DNA of 64,000 nucleotides from assembly GCA_041671645.1 (NCBI GenBank), contig JBAZBD010000001.1, forward strand, positions 265,357 to 329,356, in the 5' to 3' direction. Under the pieces are notes generated by a model, which was given only the letters and a program-made list of their open reading frames with translations, did no database searches and was not told the origin of the DNA. The stretch's first letter is position 1. Each line of letters opens with the position of its first letter. Positions 16,321 to 51,655 of this stretch are shown here, one piece after another. Origin of the DNA: Patescibacteria group bacterium (GTDB taxonomy: Bacteria; Patescibacteriota; UBA1384; XYA2-FULL-43-10; 1-14-0-10-43-13). Both the position numbers and the translations under genes were made by a program.

Positions 16321-17010
16321 GTGAAAGAAATGAGGGGAATAAATATGATCAAAAGACACAAAGTTTCAATTTTCATCATTCTGATTTTCGCGGCTGTAGC
16401 TGCCTTCAGCACCTATATTTTCGTGCCAAAGTTTTTCGCAGATGAAGTTTATCCGCTCAAGTACTCTGAGTTTATCGTCAAATATTCAAAAGAGTACAAT
16501 GTCGACCCGGCTCTGCTGGCTGCTCTGATCTTCCAGGAAAGCCGCTTTAATCCCAAGGCTGTGTCTCCAGCTGGTGCACAGGGCATCGCGCAGTTCATGC
16601 CAGGGACAGCCAGGACGATGGCCAACGAACTTGGGCTCAAGACATATGATATTTTCGACGCCGAGACCGGCATTCGTTTTGCGGCTGCCCATCTTCGAGA
16701 CTTGCTCAACAAATACGACAACAACACTGATCAAGCTCTAGCTAGTTACAACGCTGGCACTGGCACGGTTGACCGTTGGGTCAGTCTCAACATCTTTGAG
16801 AAAATTATTGGTGGTAATTCCAAGACCGAGACAGTCAACTACGTCAAAAAGATCACTCGCTATCGGGATGTTTATCGCACGATGTATCCGGTTGAATTGG
16901 GCTTGACAGTACCAGTCGTCAGGACGGTGACTCAGGAAGATACCCAGGCTCAGATCAGAGGCTATATCTGGACCAGGATATTTAGTGATTTGATCACATT
17001 CAATAGATAG
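16321..17010 (+). CDS. Lytic transglycosylase (SLT domain), membrane-anchored
   Basis: N-terminal TM, then LAALIFQESRFNPKAVSPAGAQGIAQFMPGTA...SYNAGTGTV. Confidence 0.8.
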   Translation: MKEMRGINMIKRHKVSIFIILIFAAVAAFSTYIFVPKFFADEVYPLKYSEFIVKYSKEYNVDPALLAALIFQESRFNPKAVSPAGAQGIAQFMPGTARTMANELGLKTYDIFDAETGIRFAAAHLRDLLNKYDNNTDQALASYNAGTGTVDRWVSLNIFEKIIGGNSKTETVNYVKKITRYRDVYRTMYPVELGLTVPVVRTVTQEDTQAQIRGYIWTRIFSDLITFNR

Positions 17011-17075
17011 CCATAATGGATTACCCCAAAGGGGACCCTCCGGGTCGAATTTTCCAAATTACAGATACTATTATC
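17011..17075 (+). promoter_or_regulatory. Conserved twin-hairpin leader motif, copy A (upstream of alaS)
   Basis: CCATAATGGATTACCCCAAAGGGGACCCTCCGGGTCGAATT...AAATTACAGATACTAT. Hairpins are CCCC-AAA-GGGG and GACCC-TCC-GGGTC. It is about 80% identical to the copy at 34581. Confidence 0.5.
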
Positions 17076-18833
17076 ATGAATTCAAACGAATTACGACAGA
17101 AATTTCTAAAATATTTTGAGGGGGAAGGACATAAAGTCTTGCCCTCTTCTTCTCTTGTGCCCGGCGAGACCGATCCGACCGTTCTTTTCACCACAGCTGG
17201 CATGCATCAATTCAAGCGCTATTATTCTGAGCCTCTCGAGGCGCCGTCAGCTCGGGTTACGACAAGTCAAAAATGTGTTCGAACGGGCGATATTGATGAA
17301 GTGGGCGATAAGACTCACCTGACTTTCTTTGAGATGTTGGGCAATTTTTCTTTTGGTTACCCAGAGACAGAACACTCATATTTCAAGAAAGAATCGATCG
17401 ATTTCGCTTGGCGTTTCCTGACAGATGAACTTGGGCTTGATAAGAAAAGAATTTACGCCACATATTTTCAGGGTGAAAACGGAGTAGCGGAGGATCGAGA
17501 GTCATTTGATATTCTGAAAACGATTGAAGGTTTGGACGAGATCAAACCTCAGGGTTTTGATGACAACTTCTGGTCGCTTGGCACAGAGAATTCACCAGGC
17601 GGACCGACAGTCGAATTTTATGTTGATGGCGTCGAGGTCTGGAATTTGGTTTTCAACGAATACACTTTCATCGGTGGCGAATACAAACCTGCCAAGTTCA
17701 AGGGCGTTGACACTGGCATGGGGTTTGAGCGCTTACTTTGTTCTCTAAATAAAGATTTGGATAGTGTTTATCATACTGATTTATTCGATGCGGCACACAA
17801 GAAATTGCATGAACTTCTAAAAAATGAAGATGTCACTGCCGAAAGAGTCATTCTCGATCATATCCGTGCTGCGATTTTCATTATCAACGATGGTGTCGTG
17901 CCCTCAAACAAGGACAAGGGCTACGTCCTGCGCCGCTTGATCCGTCGAGCGATAGTGAAAGCTCAGCAAATCGGTATTACCGAAAATTTTGTTATCAAAA
18001 TAGCAGAACAATATTTTTCTTCCTATGAAGGTGTTTATTCTTTTGACCAGCCGACAATACTTGGTGAATTGGAGAAGGAGGAGGGCAAATTTCGTCATAC
18101 CCTTAGAGCGGGTTTGAAAAAGTTCGAAATAATGAAAACACTTAAGGAAAATTCAATTAAATCAACGACTTCCGCAGCATTTTTTAATGGCAAAGAGTTA
18201 TTCGATCTTTATCAATCAGATGGTTTTCCTCTCGAATTAAGCCTTGAATTGGCTAAAGAGGCTGGTTTGCCAGTTCGGGATCAAGAGGTTGAACTTTTTA
18301 AGCATTTATCGAAATCCCATCAGGAGCTTTCACGTACTGCTTCTGCGGGTATGTTCAAGGGCGGATTGGCTGAAGCTGGCGAGATTACGACCAAATATCA
18401 CACCGCGACTCACTTACTCTTGGCGGCACTTCGCCAGGTCTTGGGAGACCATGTATTCCAAAAAGGCTCTAACATTACAGCTGAGCGGATGAGATTCGAC
18501 TTTTCCCACCCAGACAAGATGACGCCAGAGCAGATCGAAGAAGTTGAGAAAATTGTAAATCAGAAGATTGATGAAGATTTGACTGTTTCAATGGAGGAGA
18601 TGAGCCTCGAAGACGCCAAAGCTTCAGGGGCAATGGGAGTTTTCGAGAACAAATATGGCGATAAGGTCAAAGTATACACGATCGGGCAAACACCTCACAT
18701 ATCTGAGGTGTTTAGTCGCGAGATGTGCGGCGGGCCTCATGTCACCCGCACTGGCGAGCTTGGCCAATTCAAAATATCGAAGGAAGAAGCCTCCTCTTCT
18801 GGAGTCAGAAGAATCAAGGCAGTTCTCAAATAA
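17076..18833 (+). CDS. alaS: Alanyl-tRNA synthetase, short form (catalytic + tRNA-recognition + editing domains, no C-Ala domain)
   Basis: MNSNELRQKFLKYFEGEGHKVLPSSSLVP..DPTVLFTTAGMHQFK...FEMLGNFSFG. The C-terminal editing domain carries HTATHLL...CGGPH. Total about 585 aa. Confidence 0.85.
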   Translation: MNSNELRQKFLKYFEGEGHKVLPSSSLVPGETDPTVLFTTAGMHQFKRYYSEPLEAPSARVTTSQKCVRTGDIDEVGDKTHLTFFEMLGNFSFGYPETEHSYFKKESIDFAWRFLTDELGLDKKRIYATYFQGENGVAEDRESFDILKTIEGLDEIKPQGFDDNFWSLGTENSPGGPTVEFYVDGVEVWNLVFNEYTFIGGEYKPAKFKGVDTGMGFERLLCSLNKDLDSVYHTDLFDAAHKKLHELLKNEDVTAERVILDHIRAAIFIINDGVVPSNKDKGYVLRRLIRRAIVKAQQIGITENFVIKIAEQYFSSYEGVYSFDQPTILGELEKEEGKFRHTLRAGLKKFEIMKTLKENSIKSTTSAAFFNGKELFDLYQSDGFPLELSLELAKEAGLPVRDQEVELFKHLSKSHQELSRTASAGMFKGGLAEAGEITTKYHTATHLLLAALRQVLGDHVFQKGSNITAERMRFDFSHPDKMTPEQIEEVEKIVNQKIDEDLTVSMEEMSLEDAKASGAMGVFENKYGDKVKVYTIGQTPHISEVFSREMCGGPHVTRTGELGQFKISKEEASSSGVRRIKAVLK

Positions 18834-34573: not shown

Positions 34574-34580
34574 AGCTTCG

Positions 34581-34645
34581 CCATAAGGGATTACCCCGAA
34601 GGGGACCCTTCGGGTCGGATTGAACAAATTACGAATACTATACGA
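34581..34645 (+). promoter_or_regulatory. Conserved twin-hairpin leader motif, copy B (between greA and lysS)
   Basis: CCATAAGGGATTACCCCGAAGGGGACCCTTCGGGTCGGATT...AAATTACGAATACTAT. Same stems as copy A; only the loops differ. Confidence 0.5.
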
Positions 34646-43565: not shown

Positions 43566-44393
43566 ATGATTTCTGATCTCATAAAAACAAAAACCAAAGA
43601 CCTGCCCGCAGATGCTAAAGCACAGCTTTTGCAGGCGGGTGAACCCCCAGAATCGAAAGAAGAAGCCAAGAAAGAGGCCAAGGCCACATCAGATGACCAT
43701 GGTGGTGATATTGTTATTGAATTTGACGAAGTATCAAAGGTTTATCCGGGCAAAGTCGAGGCCTTGATCGATGTTAGTTTCAATGTCAAAATCGGTGAAT
43801 TTATTTCTCTCGTAGGTCCATCTGGCGCTGGCAAATCGACCATCATCAAGTTGCTCACTCGCGAAGAGGAGCCTACATCAGGCAAAATCTTGGTCGCTGG
43901 CCGTGACATATCGAAGCTCTCTAAGAAGGAATTACCATTTTTCCGACGCAAAGTCGGCGTTATTTTTCAGGACTTCAAACTGCTTCCAAAGAAGAGAGTA
44001 TACGAAAACATCGCTTATGCTCTTGAGGTTTGTGACGCGACCAACGAAGAAATTGAGGATAAGGTGCCCAAGATTATTGAGCTGGTCGGCCTGACTCAGC
44101 GCGCTTTTGCCTTTTCGGAGGAGCTTTCTGGCGGAGAGAAACAGAGAGTTTCGATCGCTCGGGCCTTGGTCCACAATCCGAAACTTTTGATTGCCGATGA
44201 ACCTACTGGAAATCTGGATCCAGTTTCGACATGGGAAATTATCGAATTGCTTTTCAAGATCAACAAGCAGGGGACGATCGTTCTGCTAGCAACACATGAC
44301 AAGGAAGTTGTCGATTCGCTAGAGAAGCGGGTGATTTCGATCAGAGACGGCAAGATTTTCTCAGATCAGGAGAAAGGAAAGTACAACTTATAA
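43566..44393 (+). CDS. ftsE: Cell-division ABC ATPase FtsE (with ~50-aa acidic/Lys-rich N-terminal extension)
   Basis: Walker A GPSGAGKST, signature LSGGEKQRVSIARAL and Walker B LLIADEPTGNLD. Followed by ftsX. Confidence 0.8.
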   Translation: MISDLIKTKTKDLPADAKAQLLQAGEPPESKEEAKKEAKATSDDHGGDIVIEFDEVSKVYPGKVEALIDVSFNVKIGEFISLVGPSGAGKSTIIKLLTREEEPTSGKILVAGRDISKLSKKELPFFRRKVGVIFQDFKLLPKKRVYENIAYALEVCDATNEEIEDKVPKIIELVGLTQRAFAFSEELSGGEKQRVSIARALVHNPKLLIADEPTGNLDPVSTWEIIELLFKINKQGTIVLLATHDKEVVDSLEKRVISIRDGKIFSDQEKGKYNL

Positions 44394-44394
44394 T

Positions 44395-45306
44395 ATGATG
44401 TATTTTACTTCAATTTATCGGATCCTTCGAACCTCGGCAGTTTCGCTTTGGCGAAACCGTTGGCTTTCGCTTGGGGCAGTCCTAATCATGGTGATGACGC
44501 TATTTTCGATCTCGTTTTTCACTACCCTTCTTGTTGTGAGCGGCAAGATGACAGTATTGCTTCGAGAAAAGGTAGATATCGCTGTTTATTTCAATGATGA
44601 CGCCTCCAAGGACCAGGTTTATTCAATCCAAAACACTTTGCTCGGCCGTGATGACATCAAATCAGTTGACTATATTTCCAAGGAAAAGGCCCTGGAGAGA
44701 TGGCAGGAGCGCAATAAGAGCAACGAAAATGTGAAAAATATTATTACCGCTGATTATAATCCCTTGCCACGAAGTTTGGAGATCAAAACAGACAAAACAG
44801 AGGATCTGGAGAAAGTTTATGATTTTGTAAATTCTGCTGAGTTTAAGCCTCTGATCAAGGAGATCAGCTACCAGAAAAACAAGGTTTTGATCAACAGATT
44901 GATCAAGGCGACCACCTTTATCAAATATATCGGTTGGGCCGAATCAAGCATATTCATCCTGATTTCGATCCTAATTATTTATAATACAATTCGGTTGACG
45001 ATCTACGCTCGGTCGCAGGAAATTGAGATTATGAAATTGGTTGGCGCCTCTGATTGGTATGTCCAGGGTCCTTTCATCGTCGAGGGCATCGCCTATGGTC
45101 TGGTCGCTTCAATAATCTCCACTTTGATCCTCTGGGTTATTTACCATTTTTCCCTTCCTTCAGTCGAGGGATATCTCGGCGTTACCTTGGCCAGCTCGAT
45201 CTACAGCGGAGTCAACATCGGTATGATTTTCCTATTCCAAATTATTATCGGTCTAGCTTTGGGCACGGGTTGCTCCATGCTGGCGGTCAAAAAATACCTT
45301 AAATGA
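44395..45306 (+). CDS. ftsX: Cell-division permease FtsX
   Basis: One TM, a periplasmic loop domain and three C-terminal TM helices. Coupled to ftsE (1-nt gap). Confidence 0.75.
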   Translation: MMYFTSIYRILRTSAVSLWRNRWLSLGAVLIMVMTLFSISFFTTLLVVSGKMTVLLREKVDIAVYFNDDASKDQVYSIQNTLLGRDDIKSVDYISKEKALERWQERNKSNENVKNIITADYNPLPRSLEIKTDKTEDLEKVYDFVNSAEFKPLIKEISYQKNKVLINRLIKATTFIKYIGWAESSIFILISILIIYNTIRLTIYARSQEIEIMKLVGASDWYVQGPFIVEGIAYGLVASIISTLILWVIYHFSLPSVEGYLGVTLASSIYSGVNIGMIFLFQIIIGLALGTGCSMLAVKKYLK

Positions 45307-46535
45307 AAAGAAAAACGATATTAAAATTTGCCGGAAGATTGCTAGCTATCATCTTGGTGGCTAATTTTTTGCTTCCGGTGCCGATTACGAAGGCTGACAG
45401 TTTGACTGACTTGCAAAGTCAATTGAACAAGCTCATGCAACAGAAGAAGCAGAACACGGCTGCCATTGCTCAGAAGCAGCAGGACATCAACACGCTTAAA
45501 CAACAAATTCAAACAGTTGACGGCCAGATCTCTAGCACGACCAGAGCGATCGGGACTACGGCCGAGCAGATTGATTCGACTTCTACTACAATCGCTGATC
45601 TCAAGGCTCAGATCGAACAAGAGGAAGCTAGCCTGAATAAAGAGCAGGACAATTTAAGCAGCGTCCTTTCCTCTTGGTATATGGAGGGCGATAGCAGTCT
45701 TCTCGAAGCTATCTTCATGTCAGACAATTTATCCGAAATGTTTAATCGTTCTGAATACTACGAATCTGTCCGTCAGCAAGTCGAAGTTGCCATAGAGCGT
45801 ATCGACAAGGCGAAAGATGAGCTGAATCTCCAAAAAGGCGATCAGGAGAGGAAACTGGCTGAGCTTTCTGATCTGAAAAATTCGCAGGAGAGCCAGAAAA
45901 ATTATCTAGAAAATCGCAAGGACCTGAAGAGCTCTCTACTCAATAATACAACCTCGGCGGTTTCAAGTCTGCAAACCGAACAAAAGAATACCGACTCCTT
46001 GATTGCCGACATCCAGGGTAGAATCGATAAGATTAGGGCTGCTTCCGTAGGAGCGGGCGGAGATTTGGTCTCAGCGGTTGATTCGAGTTGGTATTTCCAG
46101 CAAGACGATTCAAGATGGAAAAATGATAAAATCGGTGCATATGCCACGATTGGTGAAGTCGGTTGTTTGCTTACTTCGCTCACCATGATCGCCAAATATT
46201 ATGGCAAAAATTATGACCCGCCTAGCGCCGCTGACGCTTCAGCCTTTGTCCGTGGCGGACGATACGATGGTTCCCTGATTAGTACACCAATCGTTTCGGA
46301 TGGCCATTCTCAGACTATCGACTGGGCAGTGGTGGACAACGAGCTTGCCAACAATCGTCCAGTTGTCGTTGGTGTAGCCCTTGGCGTCGATATGGGAAAT
46401 TCCTATGGCGTTTCTCACTTTGTTGTAGTAAAATCAAAAATTGGTACTGGCAAATACGCAATTCATGATCCGTTGGGTCCTGGACGGGGTTATATGAAAT
46501 CTCAGGTCAAGGCGATGCGTATTATACGGCCATAG
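45303..46535 (+). CDS. PcsB/EnvC-like FtsEX-coupled hydrolase: signal anchor, long coiled-coil, C-terminal papain-like Cys-peptidase (CHAP/C39-like) domain
   Basis: About 200 aa of heptad-rich Q/K/E sequence, then a C-terminal domain with the putative nucleophile GEVGCLLTSL and the His VSHFVVV. Overlaps the ftsX stop. Confidence 0.55.
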   Translation: MKRKTILKFAGRLLAIILVANFLLPVPITKADSLTDLQSQLNKLMQQKKQNTAAIAQKQQDINTLKQQIQTVDGQISSTTRAIGTTAEQIDSTSTTIADLKAQIEQEEASLNKEQDNLSSVLSSWYMEGDSSLLEAIFMSDNLSEMFNRSEYYESVRQQVEVAIERIDKAKDELNLQKGDQERKLAELSDLKNSQESQKNYLENRKDLKSSLLNNTTSAVSSLQTEQKNTDSLIADIQGRIDKIRAASVGAGGDLVSAVDSSWYFQQDDSRWKNDKIGAYATIGEVGCLLTSLTMIAKYYGKNYDPPSAADASAFVRGGRYDGSLISTPIVSDGHSQTIDWAVVDNELANNRPVVVGVALGVDMGNSYGVSHFVVVKSKIGTGKYAIHDPLGPGRGYMKSQVKAMRIIRP

Positions 46536-46559
46536 CAAATACTATAGAAAACAGAAAAA

Positions 46560-47795
46560 TTGATGCAAATATTTTCAAACAAAAAAGGTAAAATTCGGCT
46601 AAAGCAAGCCCTATTTTTTGTCTCGACACTCCTACTTCTGGGAGCGAGTTTTTGGTTTGGCGTCTCTTGCGGGAAGGGCAACGTCCCAATTCTTCGTGAT
46701 CTATCCTCTCAGGTTGTGAACAAAGAGGAGGACAAACCGAGTCAACTTGATTTTTCAATCTACTGGGATGCTTGGAACAAACTGGTTGAAAAAGCGGTAA
46801 TCAAGCCAGATCAGCAGAAGATGATCTATGGTTCGATCTCAGGCATGCTCTCGTCGCTCAATGATCCCTATACAGTGTTTTTCACACCAGAAGATGCCAA
46901 GAGATTCAAAGAAGATATCCAGGGTGAATTTGATGGCATCGGAGTTGAATTGATCCAGAAAAATGGTATACCAACAGTGGTAGCCCCGCTTTCAAAAACC
47001 CCGGCCGAGGCGGCTGGTATCAAAGCGGGCGACTTGATCGCCGAAGTTGATGGCACCAAGACTGAGACAATGGGATTCAATGAGGTGGTTGATAAGATAC
47101 GAGGCAAGAAGGGCACTACGGTGACGCTTAAAATTGTCCGTGAGGGGAAAGACGAGCCGATTACTGTCCTGGTGGTGCGTGACACAATTATCGTCAAAAG
47201 CGTCGAGTGGGAATTCAAGGATCAGGATGGCAAGAAGATTGGAATCGTCAAAATCAGACAATTTGGCGACGATACAAACTCGCTTTTTGATCAATTTGCC
47301 GCTGAAGCGATCAAAAATAAGGCCGATAGTGTCGTGGTCGACCTAAGAAACAACCCTGGCGGCTACCTCGAATCTGCGATTACTTTATCCAGCTATTTCA
47401 TTGATGGCGGTACTATTGTCAAAGAGAAAGATCGTAACGACAATGTTCGGGAATACAATGCCAACAAGAAAGCTACTCTGAAAAATATTAAGACTGCAGT
47501 GCTGGTCAACAAAGGATCGGCTTCTGCTTCTGAAATTTTCTCCGGCGCATTGCAAGACAGAAAAGTAGGCAAGATCATCGGCGAAAAGACATTTGGCAAG
47601 GGTTGCGTTCAGGAAATTATTGAGTTGAAAGATCAATCTGCAGTCAAAATTACGGTGGCCAACTGGCTGACGCCAAACGGCCGAGCGATAAATGGTGAAG
47701 GAATTACTCCTGATATCACAATCGTCAAAACTGACGACGCCAAAACAGATAATCAACTGGATCGGGCCATTCAATTTTTGACAAAAGGGGAGTAG
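46560..47795 (+). CDS. ctpA: C-terminal processing (tail-specific) protease, S41 family, with PDZ domain
   Basis: N-terminal TM, PDZ domain (GIGVEL...GIKAGDLIAEVDG) and the catalytic stretch NKGSASASEIF...FGKG. Confidence 0.85.
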   Translation: MMQIFSNKKGKIRLKQALFFVSTLLLLGASFWFGVSCGKGNVPILRDLSSQVVNKEEDKPSQLDFSIYWDAWNKLVEKAVIKPDQQKMIYGSISGMLSSLNDPYTVFFTPEDAKRFKEDIQGEFDGIGVELIQKNGIPTVVAPLSKTPAEAAGIKAGDLIAEVDGTKTETMGFNEVVDKIRGKKGTTVTLKIVREGKDEPITVLVVRDTIIVKSVEWEFKDQDGKKIGIVKIRQFGDDTNSLFDQFAAEAIKNKADSVVVDLRNNPGGYLESAITLSSYFIDGGTIVKEKDRNDNVREYNANKKATLKNIKTAVLVNKGSASASEIFSGALQDRKVGKIIGEKTFGKGCVQEIIELKDQSAVKITVANWLTPNGRAINGEGITPDITIVKTDDAKTDNQLDRAIQFLTKGE

Positions 47796-47797
47796 AA

Positions 47798-47825
47798 TTA
47801 AGTCATAAAGTTATCAAGTTCAGTC
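47798..47825. repeat. WAAAGTY-family short repeat
   Basis: TTAAGTCATAAAGTTATCAAGTTCAG. Confidence 0.35.
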
Positions 47826-47845
47826 TGTAAGCTCTAGGAGGGGCG

Positions 47846-49729
47846 ATGCCAGATACTCAACAAAACACTAATACGCCAACAACAGCCCCGAAGGGGTCTC
47901 CTTTGGGAACGCAGACAACAACACCTGCGCCTACTTCGAGTCCGTGGGAAGAACCTTTGCCTTTGGAAGATACCAAGCCGAAAATGATGGGCACTCTATC
48001 AAAAGAGGAATCGGCCGCTGTACCAGATTCAGCGCCCCCAAAGGGGGCCCCTTCGGGGCCGGTCTTTTCGTTGCCTAGCAATCCAGAGGAAAATGTTGTG
48101 CCCAAGCCTGTAACGCCTGCTGATTTGCCGGTATCTTCCCCAAAGGGGGCCCCTTCGGGGCCGGCTCCAGCTGCGCCTCCGCCCCCTGTCCCACCTGTCC
48201 CGCCCGTAACTCCGAAGGCTCCAGCTCCAAAAGTGGAGCCAGCTGTCGCCCCGGCCGCCCCGGTCAAAGCCCCCTCGATATTTGCAAGATTGGCCAAGAC
48301 CAAATCGATCGGCCTCGAATTGTTGAAGAGCAAAGCTGATGTAACACCACCTGTTGCGGCTCCGGCCGAAAATACTGCTTCGCCTGCACCTACGGTTGCT
48401 CCGGCTCCGATAGTTGAGAAAAAGATTGCTCCGACAATTCCAAATCTGAATGAATCAAAGCCAGCAATTTCTGGCGATATTTCTCCGGCTAAGCCCGTTG
48501 CTCCTGTTCCTGCCCCTGTTGTAGTGCCTCCACCTGTCGTGGCAGAGCCTATCGCTGCGGCTGTTCCGCAAGCTGCCCCTCCTGCACCAGCAGTGGTCAA
48601 GCAGCCCAAAGCCCCAATCAAAATCTCTCCTAGGAAGCTTTGGACGGCTGGCGTCATTGTCGGTCTTTTGGCTATATTTTCGCTGATGACTTGGCTGACA
48701 GAGATTGGATTTGTCTCAGTCGGCTTGGAAAAGGTTTATGGTGCGGTTAATATCCAAGCACTTTGGGGTGGTTTGCCAGCAAACGGTGAACTTGCTCTTG
48801 GCAAATCATTTGTCGTGATGAAGGACAACCCAAACTTTGAAGTATCTGGCACGCTTGTCGTAGATATCGACCGAACCAAGAATTCTACCGTGACTAAGCC
48901 TCTCGTCTCATATTTTCCCGATATCTATGTCAAAGAAACTGTCCAGAAGGCAAAATTGGCAGTTTATACTGGTTATGATGTCGATGGCTCATCGGTGGAT
49001 GCAACTCCTACGGACACTACGACTTCGACCGACACAACGGACAGCAGCGCTACTTCAGATACAACTACAGCGGCAGATACAACAACTTCTGCTAGCTCAG
49101 TTGCGAGCTCTTCGAAGCAGGAGGATTTTCCGGCTTACCAAAACGTAACTTCAACGATCAAAGAATTGAATGCAGATGTCACTGGCAGTTTCACGGACAA
49201 TGGCGGTAGCGCCAAATTTCAGTTCAAGAAACCTGTCGGATCGACAGATGTTGAGCTCAAACAGCAGGCGGGCAAGCTTTGGCTAAAGAGCAAGATTGCC
49301 TTCACCAAGAACCAAGATGCCACCAAATGGATGGAGATGGGCATGGGCCCAGTTAAGGCGGGGAACAGTATTGTCGAGAGTCTTTTTAGCGCCTCACCGG
49401 CCGACGGTTTGTCAGCGACAGGCTCGAGGGTGGGCAATGAGAAAATTGGCAATGTTCGAACATACCACTATAATTTCAAATCCCTGGAGATCGGCGATTC
49501 GCTTATCGCCCTTGGAATCAAGAATGAAATGGTCGACAGTATCTCAGGAGACGTCTGGATCGGAATCAAGGACCAAAAAATCCAAAAGATTGATCTCAAG
49601 ATCACTCCAGCGCCGTCCTATTCAGTTACAATGCTGAAATTATCCCTAACTCTCAGTAACTTCGGTGAAGCTGAATTTGCCAAACCGCTTGCGACTGAGA
49701 TTCTGCCTGCCAGTTTTGTATCTCAATAA
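47846..49729 (+). CDS. Pro/Ala-rich membrane-anchored surface protein (N-terminal low-complexity, central TM, Thr/Ser-rich linker, C-terminal domain)
   Basis: PAPAP/PPV-rich region of about 270 aa containing two PKGAPSGP repeats, a TM helix LWTAGVIVGLLAIFSLMTWL, a T/S-rich tract and a C-terminal domain of about 200 aa. Confidence 0.55.
   Translation: MPDTQQNTNTPTTAPKGSPLGTQTTTPAPTSSPWEEPLPLEDTKPKMMGTLSKEESAAVPDSAPPKGAPSGPVFSLPSNPEENVVPKPVTPADLPVSSPKGAPSGPAPAAPPPPVPPVPPVTPKAPAPKVEPAVAPAAPVKAPSIFARLAKTKSIGLELLKSKADVTPPVAAPAENTASPAPTVAPAPIVEKKIAPTIPNLNESKPAISGDISPAKPVAPVPAPVVVPPPVVAEPIAAAVPQAAPPAPAVVKQPKAPIKISPRKLWTAGVIVGLLAIFSLMTWLTEIGFVSVGLEKVYGAVNIQALWGGLPANGELALGKSFVVMKDNPNFEVSGTLVVDIDRTKNSTVTKPLVSYFPDIYVKETVQKAKLAVYTGYDVDGSSVDATPTDTTTSTDTTDSSATSDTTTAADTTTSASSVASSSKQEDFPAYQNVTSTIKELNADVTGSFTDNGGSAKFQFKKPVGSTDVELKQQAGKLWLKSKIAFTKNQDATKWMEMGMGPVKAGNSIVESLFSASPADGLSATGSRVGNEKIGNVRTYHYNFKSLEIGDSLIALGIKNEMVDSISGDVWIGIKDQKIQKIDLKITPAPSYSVTMLKLSLTLSNFGEAEFAKPLATEILPASFVSQ
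48036..48062 (+). repeat. 27-bp direct repeat copy 1 (in-frame, encodes PKGAPSGP)
   Basis: CCCAAAGGGGGCCCCTTCGGGGCCGG. Twin-hairpin architecture like the alaS/lysS leader motif. Confidence 0.7.
48138..48164 (+). repeat. 27-bp direct repeat copy 2 (identical)
   Basis: Identical 27-mer 102 bp downstream of copy 1. Confidence 0.7.
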
Positions 49730-49822
49730 TTGGAGTATGGTGACCTTTACTATTCGACTTAGCCATAGTATATTCTTCATGACAAACAAATAAATTATCC
49801 GCCAGCTGGCGGAAGGAGTAAA

Positions 49823-50374
49823 ATGACTTGGTTTTTAATCATTGTTGCGGTAGCCGTGGTCGCTGTGATCGGAATTTATAACAAATTGGTCCAATTGAAC
49901 ATTCGAACCGATGAGGCTTGGAGCGATATTGACGTCCAGATGAAACGTCGGGCAGATTTGATCCCAAACCTAATTGAGACAGTCAAGGGTTACGCGAAGC
50001 ACGAAAAAGGTGTTTTTGAGGGCGTGACAGAGGCCAGAACTCAGATGCTCGGGGCAAAATCAGTTGGCGAGAAGGCCAAAGCCGAGAACATGATGGAAAG
50101 TGCGCTCAAATCAATTTTTGCCGTCGCTGAGGCTTATCCAGATCTCAAAGCAAATCAGAATTTTGCTCAGCTTCAGGCTGACTTGACTGACACAGAAGAT
50201 AAGATCCAAGCTTCAAGAAGATTCTATAACGCCAACGTTCGTGATCTGAATATTGCAATCCAGTCTTTCCCAACGAACATTTTTGCTAGCATGTTCAAAT
50301 ACAAGAAAAGAGATCTTTTTGAGATCACTAATGCCGCCGAAAAAGAGCCAGTTAAAGTCGACTTCAACAATTAA
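49823..50374 (+). CDS. lemA: LemA-family membrane protein
   Basis: N-terminal TM and the LemA signature YNKLV.L...E.WS.IDVQ..RR.DLIPNL..TVKGYA.HEK. Confidence 0.8.
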   Translation: MTWFLIIVAVAVVAVIGIYNKLVQLNIRTDEAWSDIDVQMKRRADLIPNLIETVKGYAKHEKGVFEGVTEARTQMLGAKSVGEKAKAENMMESALKSIFAVAEAYPDLKANQNFAQLQADLTDTEDKIQASRRFYNANVRDLNIAIQSFPTNIFASMFKYKKRDLFEITNAAEKEPVKVDFNN

Positions 50375-50386
50375 GGAAATACCCAT

Positions 50387-50734
50387 ATGGCACTAAAGAA
50401 AATCAAAATACCAAAGATGAACTTCAAGAAGCTTGATTGGTCAAAGTGGAATTTTCGTAAGATGAACTGGCAGACAATATTGGCGGTAATTGCTTATTTG
50501 CCTGTTTTGACAATCATTTCACTTGTTTTCTCTTCCAAAAACCCATATCTAACTTTCCACGTTAGACAGGGTATTGCCCTTCACCTACTCTGGATTCTCT
50601 TCGTCTTTTCATTTTTCCTGCCCCTGATCCCATGGATTCTAGCGGTCGCTCTTTTGGCGCTCACTGTGATCGGAATTATCAATGTTGTTTCGGGTCATGA
50701 AAGAAAATTGCCAGTCGTTGGTCAATTAATATAA
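50387..50734 (+). CDS. Hypothetical small membrane protein (2-3 TM)
   Basis: Lys-rich N-terminus followed by hydrophobic helices. Lies between lemA and htpX. Confidence 0.45.
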   Translation: MALKKIKIPKMNFKKLDWSKWNFRKMNWQTILAVIAYLPVLTIISLVFSSKNPYLTFHVRQGIALHLLWILFVFSFFLPLIPWILAVALLALTVIGIINVVSGHERKLPVVGQLI

Positions 50735-50743
50735 GCACTCAAT

Positions 50744-51655
50744 ATGAATATCTGGAAACAAGTCGATGCTAATAAGCAGAGGAGCATTTTTCTGGTCTTC
50801 ATATTTGTGCTAGTCGTGATTGGGATCGGCTGGTTGTTCTCCAATTATTACGGTAATCCTGCGATTTTGTATTTTGCAGTCGCTCTCGCCTTGACCCAAT
50901 CATTGGTCGGCTATTATGGCGGTGACAGCATAATCTTGAGTTCTTCTGGCGCCCAGCTTGTCACCAAAAGAAGCGATCTGCCAGTGCTCTGGAATGCGGT
51001 CGAAAATATGTCGATTGCTTCTGGCCTACCGATGCCGAAGGTCTACGTCATCAACGATCCCGCGCCCAATGCCTTTGCCACTGGCCGGGATCCGAAGCAT
51101 GCCTCAATCGCCGCTACGACTGGTCTGTTGCAAGTTTTGGACAAGAATGAGCTAGAGGGCGTCGTCGCCCATGAAATGTCTCACGTCGGCAACTATGACA
51201 TTCGCCTGATGACGATTATTACCGTTCTAGTCTCCGTCATTGCGATACTCTCTGACATTTTTGTCCGTTCCCAGATATTTGGATTTGGCCGGAAGCGTGA
51301 CAACAATAGTGAGGGCGGTGGTCTGATGGCAATTTTGAGTATTGTGGCGCTGGTACTAGCACCGATTGTCGGCACTATTATCCAGCTTGCAATCTCTCGC
51401 AAGCGCGAATTTTTGGCTGATGCCGATGGGGCATTGCTGACTGGTTACCCAGCCGGATTGGCTGGCGCTTTGGAGAAAATTTCAAAGTTTAGCAAGCCCT
51501 TAGAGCGTGCCAATACTGCCACTGCTCATCTTTATATTTCCAATCCATTGGGCGGGGGAAATCCAGAAGAAAAGGAGCCTGGTTTTCTCGCAAAAACGTT
51601 TTCTACCCATCCACCGATCAAGGAGCGGATCAGATTGCTTCGTCAAATGAGCTAG
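50744..51655 (+). CDS. htpX: M48-family zinc metalloprotease HtpX-like
   Basis: Two N-terminal TM helices, HEMSHV (HExxH), additional TM helices and a C-terminal Glu ligand region. Confidence 0.85.
   Translation: MNIWKQVDANKQRSIFLVFIFVLVVIGIGWLFSNYYGNPAILYFAVALALTQSLVGYYGGDSIILSSSGAQLVTKRSDLPVLWNAVENMSIASGLPMPKVYVINDPAPNAFATGRDPKHASIAATTGLLQVLDKNELEGVVAHEMSHVGNYDIRLMTIITVLVSVIAILSDIFVRSQIFGFGRKRDNNSEGGGLMAILSIVALVLAPIVGTIIQLAISRKREFLADADGALLTGYPAGLAGALEKISKFSKPLERANTATAHLYISNPLGGGNPEEKEPGFLAKTFSTHPPIKERIRLLRQMS

Follow-up and report, generated by a model that had tools for sequence, protein, structure and literature searches.

Two identical GC-rich repeats of 27 nt, read in frame within the gene of a protein with a proline-rich tail, are probably copies of a miniature twin-hairpin insertion element. 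This element would resemble the REP and SDR repeats of other bacteria, and would be translated and tolerated in the tail of its host protein. The gene belongs to a stretch of 64,000 nt (64 kb) from a Patescibacteria group bacterium (assembly GCA_041671645.1, contig JBAZBD010000001.1), hereafter the window, to which all coordinates refer unless another locus is named.

Element copies in the window

A 26-mer occurs exactly at 48037-48062 and at 48139-48164 of the plus strand, with no other match in the window at up to three mismatches and none in 100 dinucleotide-preserving shuffles. With the preceding C, the common block amounts to 27 nt, CCCCAAAGGGGGCCCCTTCGGGGCCGG. The two copies (copies B and C, Table 1) are 102 nt apart and stand in the same frame of the host open reading frame (ORF), where they are translated as APPKGAPSGPVF and SSPKGAPSGPAP, each containing PKGAPSGP. 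Thus, the two exact in-frame repeats described in an earlier, sequence-only reading of this DNA are indeed present, and the resemblance that it saw to sites on the alaS and lysS sides is real. Its proposal that genic and intergenic copies form a single small repeat family is also borne out, with five copies in the window, including a decayed one in the host gene, CCCCGAAGGGGTCTCCTTTGGGAA (copy A), that had been missed. Exactly five copies are obtained at up to two, three or four edits, where shuffles gave 0.00, 0.00 and 0.27 matches. Copy A is already found at up to two edits, a threshold at which no match was observed in the shuffles. The two remaining copies, CCCCAAAGGGGACCCTCCGGGT before alaS and CCCCGAAGGGGACCCTTCGGGT after greA, are canonical 22-nt units.

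In the 27-nt subfamily, to which copies B and C belong, hairpin 1 is CCCC-AAA-GGGG and hairpin 2 is GCCCC-TTC-GGGGC, followed by CGG. The predicted fold of copy B consists of two adjacent hairpins (-16.1 kcal/mol); the folding energies of the element are no better than those of shuffles of equal composition. The left flanks of the five copies read ATTA, ATTA, ACAG, GCGC and TCTT. The DNA between and beyond the two 27-nt copies is dissimilar, and because their flanks are unrelated the pair does not result from a 102-nt tandem duplication. An assembly artefact can also be set aside, since an independent Logan assembly (SRR18595301, L001) is 100% identical to the window over 12,757 nt, copies B and C included.

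An intrinsic terminator was considered for these hairpins and rejected. Only copy B (48046-48060 plus GGTCTTTTCG) fits, which makes one site against 1.3 in shuffles, and the other four window copies have no T-run.

The host gene and the evidence for insertion

The host ORF is preceded by AGGAGG at 47836-47841. It codes for an N-terminal tail containing 25% proline (residues 1-262), a hydrophobic helix at about residues 266-288 and then a conserved C-terminal domain; no Pfam family was matched by the protein. Two orthologues (P0002 and P0003, with 47% and 42% identity) are syntenic with the window gene and retain its N-terminal motifs MPDxQN, SPWEEPLP, MGTL and F(A/S)LPxNPExNVVPK. Both lack the hairpins and any PKGxPxG, with the neighbouring motifs kept. 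At copy A, the MAFFT alignment contains a gap of 27 nt in both orthologues relative to the window. Manual realignment brings this difference down to the eight codons (24 nt) of the element itself, NTNTPTT[APKGSPLG]TQ facing NTNQPVA-TQ. At copy B, the MAFFT gap shows the orthologues to be 21 nt shorter, and the stretch surrounding copy C is unalignable with them. Since the orthologues keep the flanking N-terminus, have no hairpins and are shorter exactly there, the copies are to be regarded as insertions.

The repeat region was not included in the public annotation. The gene call of the Joint Genome Institute (JGI; P0001, 498 aa) begins at GTG 48233 and thereby drops 129 N-terminal codons, including all three hairpin copies. 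Despite this start, the conservation of the N-terminal motifs in the orthologues indicates that the region is coding, and the strong AGGAGG ahead of the ORF likewise supports the dropped codons. GC-rich hairpins may mislead gene callers.

Five Lys or Arg residues are found in the 15 residues before the transmembrane helix and one in the 15 residues after it. According to the positive-inside rule, this asymmetry places the repeat-bearing tail, which is probably disordered, probably in the cytoplasm. The description of the host as a surface protein is therefore doubtful, the repeats lying ahead of the only transmembrane helix, on the side with the positive charges. This bears on another idea of the sequence-only reading, namely a recombination or slippage hotspot that would vary the repeat number of a surface protein. 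Direct repeats of 27 nt placed 102 nt apart could indeed delete 102 nt, that is 34 codons, in frame. To such a hotspot we nevertheless give very little credence: the sole other assembly (L001) is identical, the flanks show no slippage or tandem unit, the tail is probably not exposed, and the family consists mostly of single copies in housekeeping genes (see below). Nor does anything indicate that the copies were domesticated in the sense of a gained function; they are merely in frame within a tail made up of one quarter proline.

Table 1. Element copies, the longer repeat unit enclosing two of them, and the host gene, in window coordinates
Feature	Position	Strand	Remarks
Host gene, 627 aa	47846-49729	+	Proline-rich tail, one transmembrane helix, C-terminal domain without Pfam match
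Copy A	47886-47909	+	Older, decayed; two edits from the T-variant of the 22-nt unit; read APKGSPLG
Copy B	48036-48062	+	27-nt subfamily; exact match; in frame; read (P)PKGAPSGP
Copy C	48138-48164	+	Same as copy B over 27 nt; read (S)PKGAPSGP; in a hypervariable stretch of the gene
Canonical 22-nt copy, alaS side	17024-17045	+	A-variant, TCC loop; within the 65 nt that separate an SLT-domain gene from alaS
Canonical 22-nt copy, greA side	34594-34615	+	A-variant; 21 nt after the greA stop codon
62-nt unit, first copy	17010-17071	+	Encloses a 22-nt element; the two copies align with each other
62-nt unit, second copy	34580-34641	+	Encloses a 22-nt element

The gene neighbourhood is common to the orthologues and comprises FtsX, a C39-like peptidase, an S41 peptidase, the host ORF, LemA and an M48 peptidase. 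In the window, this conserved cell-envelope and division cluster around the host gene spans 43566-51655. It consists of FtsX, a coiled-coil protein with the C39-like peptidase domain and the S41 (CtpA-like) peptidase with a PDZ domain, followed by the host ORF, LemA, a small membrane protein and the M48 peptidase. The composition of the cluster gives a hint of what the uncharacterised C-terminal domain of the host protein may do.

A family across genomes and metagenomes

The core unit of the element, 22 nt long, is made of hairpin 1, CCCC-RAA-GGGG, and hairpin 2, N-CCC-TTC-GGG-N'. Other copies were searched for with the pattern CCCCRAAGGGGNCCC(N)TYCGGG, in which 20 of the 22 positions are fixed, so that divergent relatives were missed. 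At least 120 matches were found in metagenomes and at least 120 in genomes of the GTDB, together corresponding to at least 240 unique sites with unrelated flanks in metagenomes, genomes and metagenome-assembled genomes (MAGs). Among the matches listed, about two thirds of the named genomes belong to the Patescibacteria, or candidate phyla radiation (CPR), with Peribacteria, Saccharibacteria, Berkelbacteria, Falkowbacteria, Paceibacterota and others, and about twenty belong to the Bacteroidota. A few other carriers are listed, among the Ignavibacteria, low-GC 'Gammaproteobacteria' MAGs, Deltaproteobacteria, Phycisphaerae and Udaeobacter; the 120 genome loci listed include no cyanobacterium. The pattern matched one of 2.9 million viral contigs, and a BLAST search with the T-variant against 72,556 plasmids, cyanobacterial ones included, gave no match. 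In cultured collections, the element is thus neither plasmid- nor phage-borne. A literature search for the element sequence returned nothing relevant.

Although position 22 is free in the pattern, it pairs with position 12 in 222 of the 237 copies listed, and all four Watson-Crick combinations are represented (T-A in 88, C-G in 103, A-T in 25 and G-C in 6). These compensatory changes support the twin-hairpin fold. Two other folds were examined in this respect. A single long hairpin is ruled out because the covarying pair is confined to hairpin 2. Nor is an outer stem around the two hairpins a general feature, the pairing of the flanks (25-50%) being near chance.

Regarding the insertion sites, direct repeats at the borders, as expected from a target-site duplication, are no commoner than chance. 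Among the copies listed, the left flank is NNAG in 62 of 204 and GTAG in 8 of 204. Tandem arrays with a period of 6 to 8 nt hold about 29 of the 240 copies listed and none of the window copies; within period-7 arrays, clean 22-nt insertions were found. Examples of such arrays are L028, L044, L136, L167, L186, L198 and L242, with units such as GTGATTA, GTTGAAA and AATTCAG, and copies that interrupt arrays were seen on CPR, Ignavibacteria and Bacteroidota contigs.

Copies inside protein genes

Among the copies listed, 45 unique ones are read through in a frame that stays open for at least 60 codons in both directions, and only three sites give an ORF solely upon deletion of the element. From this count it follows that genic copies are translated and not removed. 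Removal at the RNA level and translational bypass, which had been envisaged as candidates, are ruled out on the same count. The carriers include QueA, BipA/TypA, YajQ, the CCA-adding enzyme, UvrA, SMC, DnaX and PheT, as well as a XerC/D-like recombinase, DnaJ (in its G/F-rich region) and the S1 tail. Compared with solved structures, the element region adds 11 residues to QueA, 11 to BipA and 5 to YajQ, in each case in a loop. The orientation is that of the ORF in 23 of the copies listed and opposite in 14, and several frames are used, giving PKGAPSG, PEGAPFGG, PQRGPFG or PKGPLRG. As none of the six frames of the element contains a stop codon, only the frame needs to fit.

Several observations place the conservation of the element at the level of nucleotides and not of the peptide. 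Besides the use of several frames, the 27-mer of the window recurs unchanged in two MAGs, one of Peribacteria (L203) and one of Saccharibacteria (L146), in the latter on the opposite strand of a DnaJ gene, within the G/F-rich region. Furthermore, in two YajQ orthologues (L109 and L152), the element is identical at 22 of 22 nt, against 62% DNA identity over the whole gene; third positions of these genes are identical at 41 of 107, meaning that synonymous sites are saturated. Presence of the 27-mer in other genes of two other genomes and the YajQ identity both contradict the view that the similarity reduces to generic Pro/Gly codon usage, the condition under which the sequence-only reading was to fail. 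To judge from these two genes, the element sequence is able to stay constant for a long time. This points to selection at the nucleotide level, homogenisation with other copies or recurrent insertion at one specific site.

It may also be imagined that the repeated entity is the peptide, PKGAPSGP being a short linear motif, for instance a docking site, whose codons would be identical by recent duplication or gene conversion. In agreement with this idea, the motif occurs three times in one disordered tail and in one frame, and the two best copies are identical, as after recent copying. The orthologues, which keep the neighbouring motifs, nevertheless have no PKGxPxG, and the sequence around the two copies is unrelated. 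Moreover, the same nucleotides are found in non-coding DNA and in tRNA-like sequences, and in other genes they are read in other frames or from the opposite strand, as PEGAPFGG, PQRGPFG or PKGPLRG. A peptide-level repeat is thus very improbable.

tRNA-like copies and GIY-YIG genes

About 30 of the copies listed are found in tRNA-like sequences located beside an intact tRNA of the same type. Comparison with the intact paralogous tRNAs reveals clean 22-nt insertions, such as ctcag|ttggt, catag|tggtc and tcttg|aaaacc. These inserts are always in loops and never in stems, mostly in the D-loop. Other loops are used in L155 (anticodon loop and T-loop), L230 (D- and T-loops) and L062 (D-loop, variable region and T-loop); the corresponding regions are 7100-7950 of L155, a Roseivirgaceae MAG, 1280-1520 of L230 and 8300-9200 of L062. 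In L155, a tRNA-Ser(TGA) gene and a small GIY-YIG gene are repeated three times in tandem and only the first tRNA is intact, the anticodon loop of the later tRNA copies holding one twin hairpin and their T-loop another, of variant sequence (TGCCAAGGGCATCCCTTTGGGA). The tRNA sequences that bear hairpins are for the most part 5' fragments or contain several inserts. ARAGORN called no tRNA within 150 nt on either side of the metagenome matches, with or without in-silico deletion of the element, and the tRNA model of Rfam recognises intact genes only, plus the 3' part of L171.

Another recurrent neighbour is an ORF of about 80 codons, the start of which lies 10-75 nt downstream of the element in 28 of the copies listed, about 12%. 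This ORF encodes a GIY-YIG domain that is most closely related, among solved structures, to the UPF0213 proteins and SLX1; prokaryotic Slx1-like proteins represent the minimal form of this domain (Dunin-Horkawicz et al., PMC1564403). In a recurrent cassette, a tRNA 5' fragment with a twin hairpin in its D-loop is followed by the Slx1/UPF0213-like ORF and by an intact tRNA of the same type. The cassette was seen in several CPR classes and in Bacteroidota, at loci L057, L140, L196, L220, L084, L076, L032, L116, L166, L233, L143, L137 and L184, among others. No description of it was found in the searchable literature, and our literature search yielded no paper linking YhbQ-type GIY-YIG genes with tRNA genes. 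There is no GIY-YIG gene in the 64-kb window, and the link between these genes and the element is an association.

The intergenic copies and a longer repeat unit

According to the sequence-only reading, the copies near alaS and lysS would be leader motifs of aminoacyl-tRNA synthetase genes. The available data speak against such a function. The greA-side copy precedes a terminator-like hairpin with a T-run and is located about 160 nt upstream of lysS. The alaS-side copy is missing in a Saccharibacteria MAG (L245) that is syntenic with the window from 11.7 to 25 kb, with 51-76% protein identity; the spacer between the SLT-domain gene and alaS measures 9 nt in L245, without the element, against 65 nt in the window. 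A converse case is also found, with a 24-nt element copy in the S1 tail of L245 that is absent from the window. Finally, at the gathering score, Rfam recognises only seven tRNAs in the window, with no T-box or other family at the element, and the region 16950-17150 gives chance-level matches only.

The alaS start was placed at ATG 17076 from Pfam and from the L245 orthologue. Another ATG in frame with alaS, at 17016, would read across the element as MDYPKGDPPGRIFQITDTII-MNSNELRQKF (17016-17075); neither ATG is preceded by a Shine-Dalgarno sequence. Since both Pfam and L245 begin at 17076, the extension from 17016 is probably untranslated.

Each of the two intergenic copies is enclosed in a longer unit of 62 nt, made of 14 nt (GCCATAAkGGATTA), the element and 26 nt (CGrATTnnnCAAATTACrrATACTAT). 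The two units align over 38 nt at 92%, with a similar 3' flank in addition, and start 0-6 nt past the stop codon of the preceding gene. Rfam recognises nothing in the 62-nt unit, which was found in no other of 245 loci examined and is absent from the syntenic L245. It is a lineage-specific longer repeat.

A selected structure or an uptake signal

Considering the nucleotide-level conservation, one may propose that the element is a functional nucleic-acid structure, that is a selected DNA or RNA module and not a mobile insert. It could be bound or cleaved by a structure-specific protein, hinder mRNA decay, or make transcription or translation pause. Covariation of the closing pair of hairpin 2, the full identity of the element in YajQ genes with saturated synonymous sites, the 3'UTR-like location of two window copies directly after stop codons and the fixed position upstream of GIY-YIG starts are all in favor of this idea, as is the terminator pattern that copy B fits when taken together with TCTTTTCG. 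On the other hand, the contexts appear too varied for such a module, since they include enzyme loops, redundant tRNAs, tandem arrays and both ORF orientations. The element is also missing at orthologous sites in relatives, one of the window copies is decayed, the terminator-like match is no more than shuffles give, and the folding energies do not exceed those of same-composition shuffles. On balance, a selected structure of this kind seems unlikely.

Another function that may be envisaged is that of a signal for DNA uptake during natural transformation. Such signals are also found in frame, conserved at the nucleotide level and enriched in genome-maintenance genes; the element likewise shows nucleotide-level conservation inside genes, and UvrA, DnaX, SMC and the XerC/D-like recombinase are hosts involved in DNA maintenance. 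DNA uptake sequences (DUS) and uptake signal sequences (USS) are lineage-specific and occur about once per kb. The present element is, in contrast, common to several phyla and far rarer, with 5 copies per 64 kb, and its positions in tRNA loops and next to GIY-YIG genes have no parallel among uptake sequences. An uptake signal is therefore the sort of explanation that we find hardly credible.

Comparison with known small repeats

REP sequences and the BIMEs built from them are GC-rich palindromes of 20-40 nt, divided into families tagged with GTAG or CGTC, and REPs are at times found in frame in the genes of known proteins, where they are read as inserted loops or linkers; uvrA and other repair genes are among the examples (Di Nocera et al., 2013, PMC3733652). 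The element described here resembles them in being a short GC-rich palindrome (22-27 nt) able to form stem-loops, dispersed and often located just downstream of ORFs. In neither case is there a target-site duplication, and the element favors a short purine-rich 5' motif, NNAG. It differs from REPs by its two side-by-side hairpins of 4 bp, where a REP has one stem of 5-13 bp, and by the tag: none of the five window copies has an unpaired GTAG or CGTC tag, and GTAG is rare among the copies listed. REPs typically flank a RAYT (Y1/HUH transposase) gene of their genome; no RAYT gene was seen here, where the analysis covered part of the ORFs in 64 kb of the 868-kb genome. Moreover, its sequence is common across phyla whereas REPs are species-specific, and its hosts are CPR bacteria and Bacteroidota MAGs whereas those of REPs are Proteobacteria.

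The cyanobacterial repeats SDR1-8, from the work of Elhai et al. in 2008 (Genome Res 18:1484, cited in PMC5861425), are reportedly 21-27 nt long, dispersed, and able to form a hairpin with compensatory changes. They are said to occur often in tandem heptamer repeats, to have been proposed as the smallest mobile elements and to be confined to Nostocaceae. Our element is like them a dispersed hairpin of 22-27 nt with compensatory changes and embedding in tandem arrays. It differs from them in host range, with no cyanobacterium among the genome loci listed.

In Rickettsia, palindromic elements of about 100-150 bp are found in frame in unrelated housekeeping genes (PMC10969869). The likeness lies in the in-frame insertion of a palindrome in housekeeping genes, with a peptide at fold-compatible positions. 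The element studied here is however only 22-27 nt long and occurs in several phyla, its host in the window being a relative of Saccharibacteria, whereas the Rickettsia elements are restricted to Rickettsia. Lastly, the double-hairpin elements of mitochondria and the GC clusters of yeast are G+C-rich double hairpins in a less G+C-rich genome, which reside in spacers, in variable parts of structural RNA genes and in protein genes and stay in the transcripts (PMC2800124, PMC4478555). The read-through observed here agrees with this last property; since those elements are organellar and of other sequence, the analogy is one of architecture only. As the element lacks the GTAG tag of REPs, the size of the Rickettsia elements and the hosts of SDRs, it was not placed in any of these families. 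It is best assigned to the small palindromic repeat kind at large and to no named family.

How the copies may have spread

Under the insertion reading, which we consider probable, three copies would have landed in the first 320 nt of the host gene, one being an old T-variant and the two others members of the 27-nt subfamily. The ribosome would read through them, adding 7-9 harmless residues (P-K-G-A/S-P-S/L-G). Copies B and C would represent either two recent insertions of the 27-nt subfamily or one copy made from the other. The length of 27 nt is a multiple of three, and this codon compatibility may explain why the subfamily is seen in ORFs. CPR genomes are roughly 90% coding. As only about one fifth of the copies listed are genic, most genic insertions were presumably lost. 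The survivors would be in-frame copies in loops, linkers and disordered tails, a picture with which the three copies of the host gene are compatible. As for the copying itself, an enzyme supplied in trans would recognise the hairpin or cruciform nucleic acid and carry the element to new sites. A small Slx1/UPF0213-like GIY-YIG nuclease would be the first candidate; a RAYT-type HUH transposase or an RNA intermediate may be envisaged as alternatives.

Several points weigh against the insertion reading. The only close relative, L001, is identical and no insertion polymorphism was seen among near-identical genomes, so that active mobility is only presumed. No mobilising gene was found within the 64-kb window. 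The identity of copies B and C could stem from copying within the gene. The identity of the element in the two YajQ genes is more easily reconciled with a selected structure or with homogenisation than with an insert that is purely selfish and decays. Finally, because most pattern positions were fixed, the description of the family is biased towards the consensus, and a few single matches in GC-rich genomes (Streptomyces, Propionicimonas) are probably due to chance.

A wider extension of the insertion reading may be put forward, though we regard it as doubtful. The 22-nt twin hairpin would be a pan-phylum 'nano-element', one of the smallest known insertion elements, that enters single-stranded loops without target duplication and acts as the non-autonomous partner, or recognition structure, of Slx1/UPF0213-like GIY-YIG nucleases. 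In this model, nucleases of about 80 aa would stand beside tRNA genes in CPR and Bacteroidota, and cassettes of nuclease and hairpin would transfer the element from one phylum to another. Copies on their own would settle in spacers, in the loops of redundant tRNAs and in frame in the loops of housekeeping proteins, their sequence being kept constant by re-copying or by selection.

Biological meaning

Small palindromic repeats within genes were already known from Rickettsia and from REP-rich Proteobacteria. To our knowledge, no agreement has ever been reached on the way in which very small repeats spread. In the present family, a single 22-nt sequence recurs hundreds of times at sites without relation to each other, in CPR bacteria with their minimal genomes and in Bacteroidota; loops of essential enzymes and of tRNA-like copies are among these sites. 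The family has consequences for annotation, since the 129 codons with the repeats are missing from the public gene call and tRNA copies with the hairpin escape tRNA finders. In the window itself, the copies of the host gene would be tolerated passengers in a disordered tail, neither a regulatory leader nor a variable surface epitope. More generally, the genic copies provide a natural catalogue of protein positions that tolerate an insertion of eight residues, and a minimal structure-specific GIY-YIG nuclease would offer a concrete candidate enzyme for the spread of such small elements.

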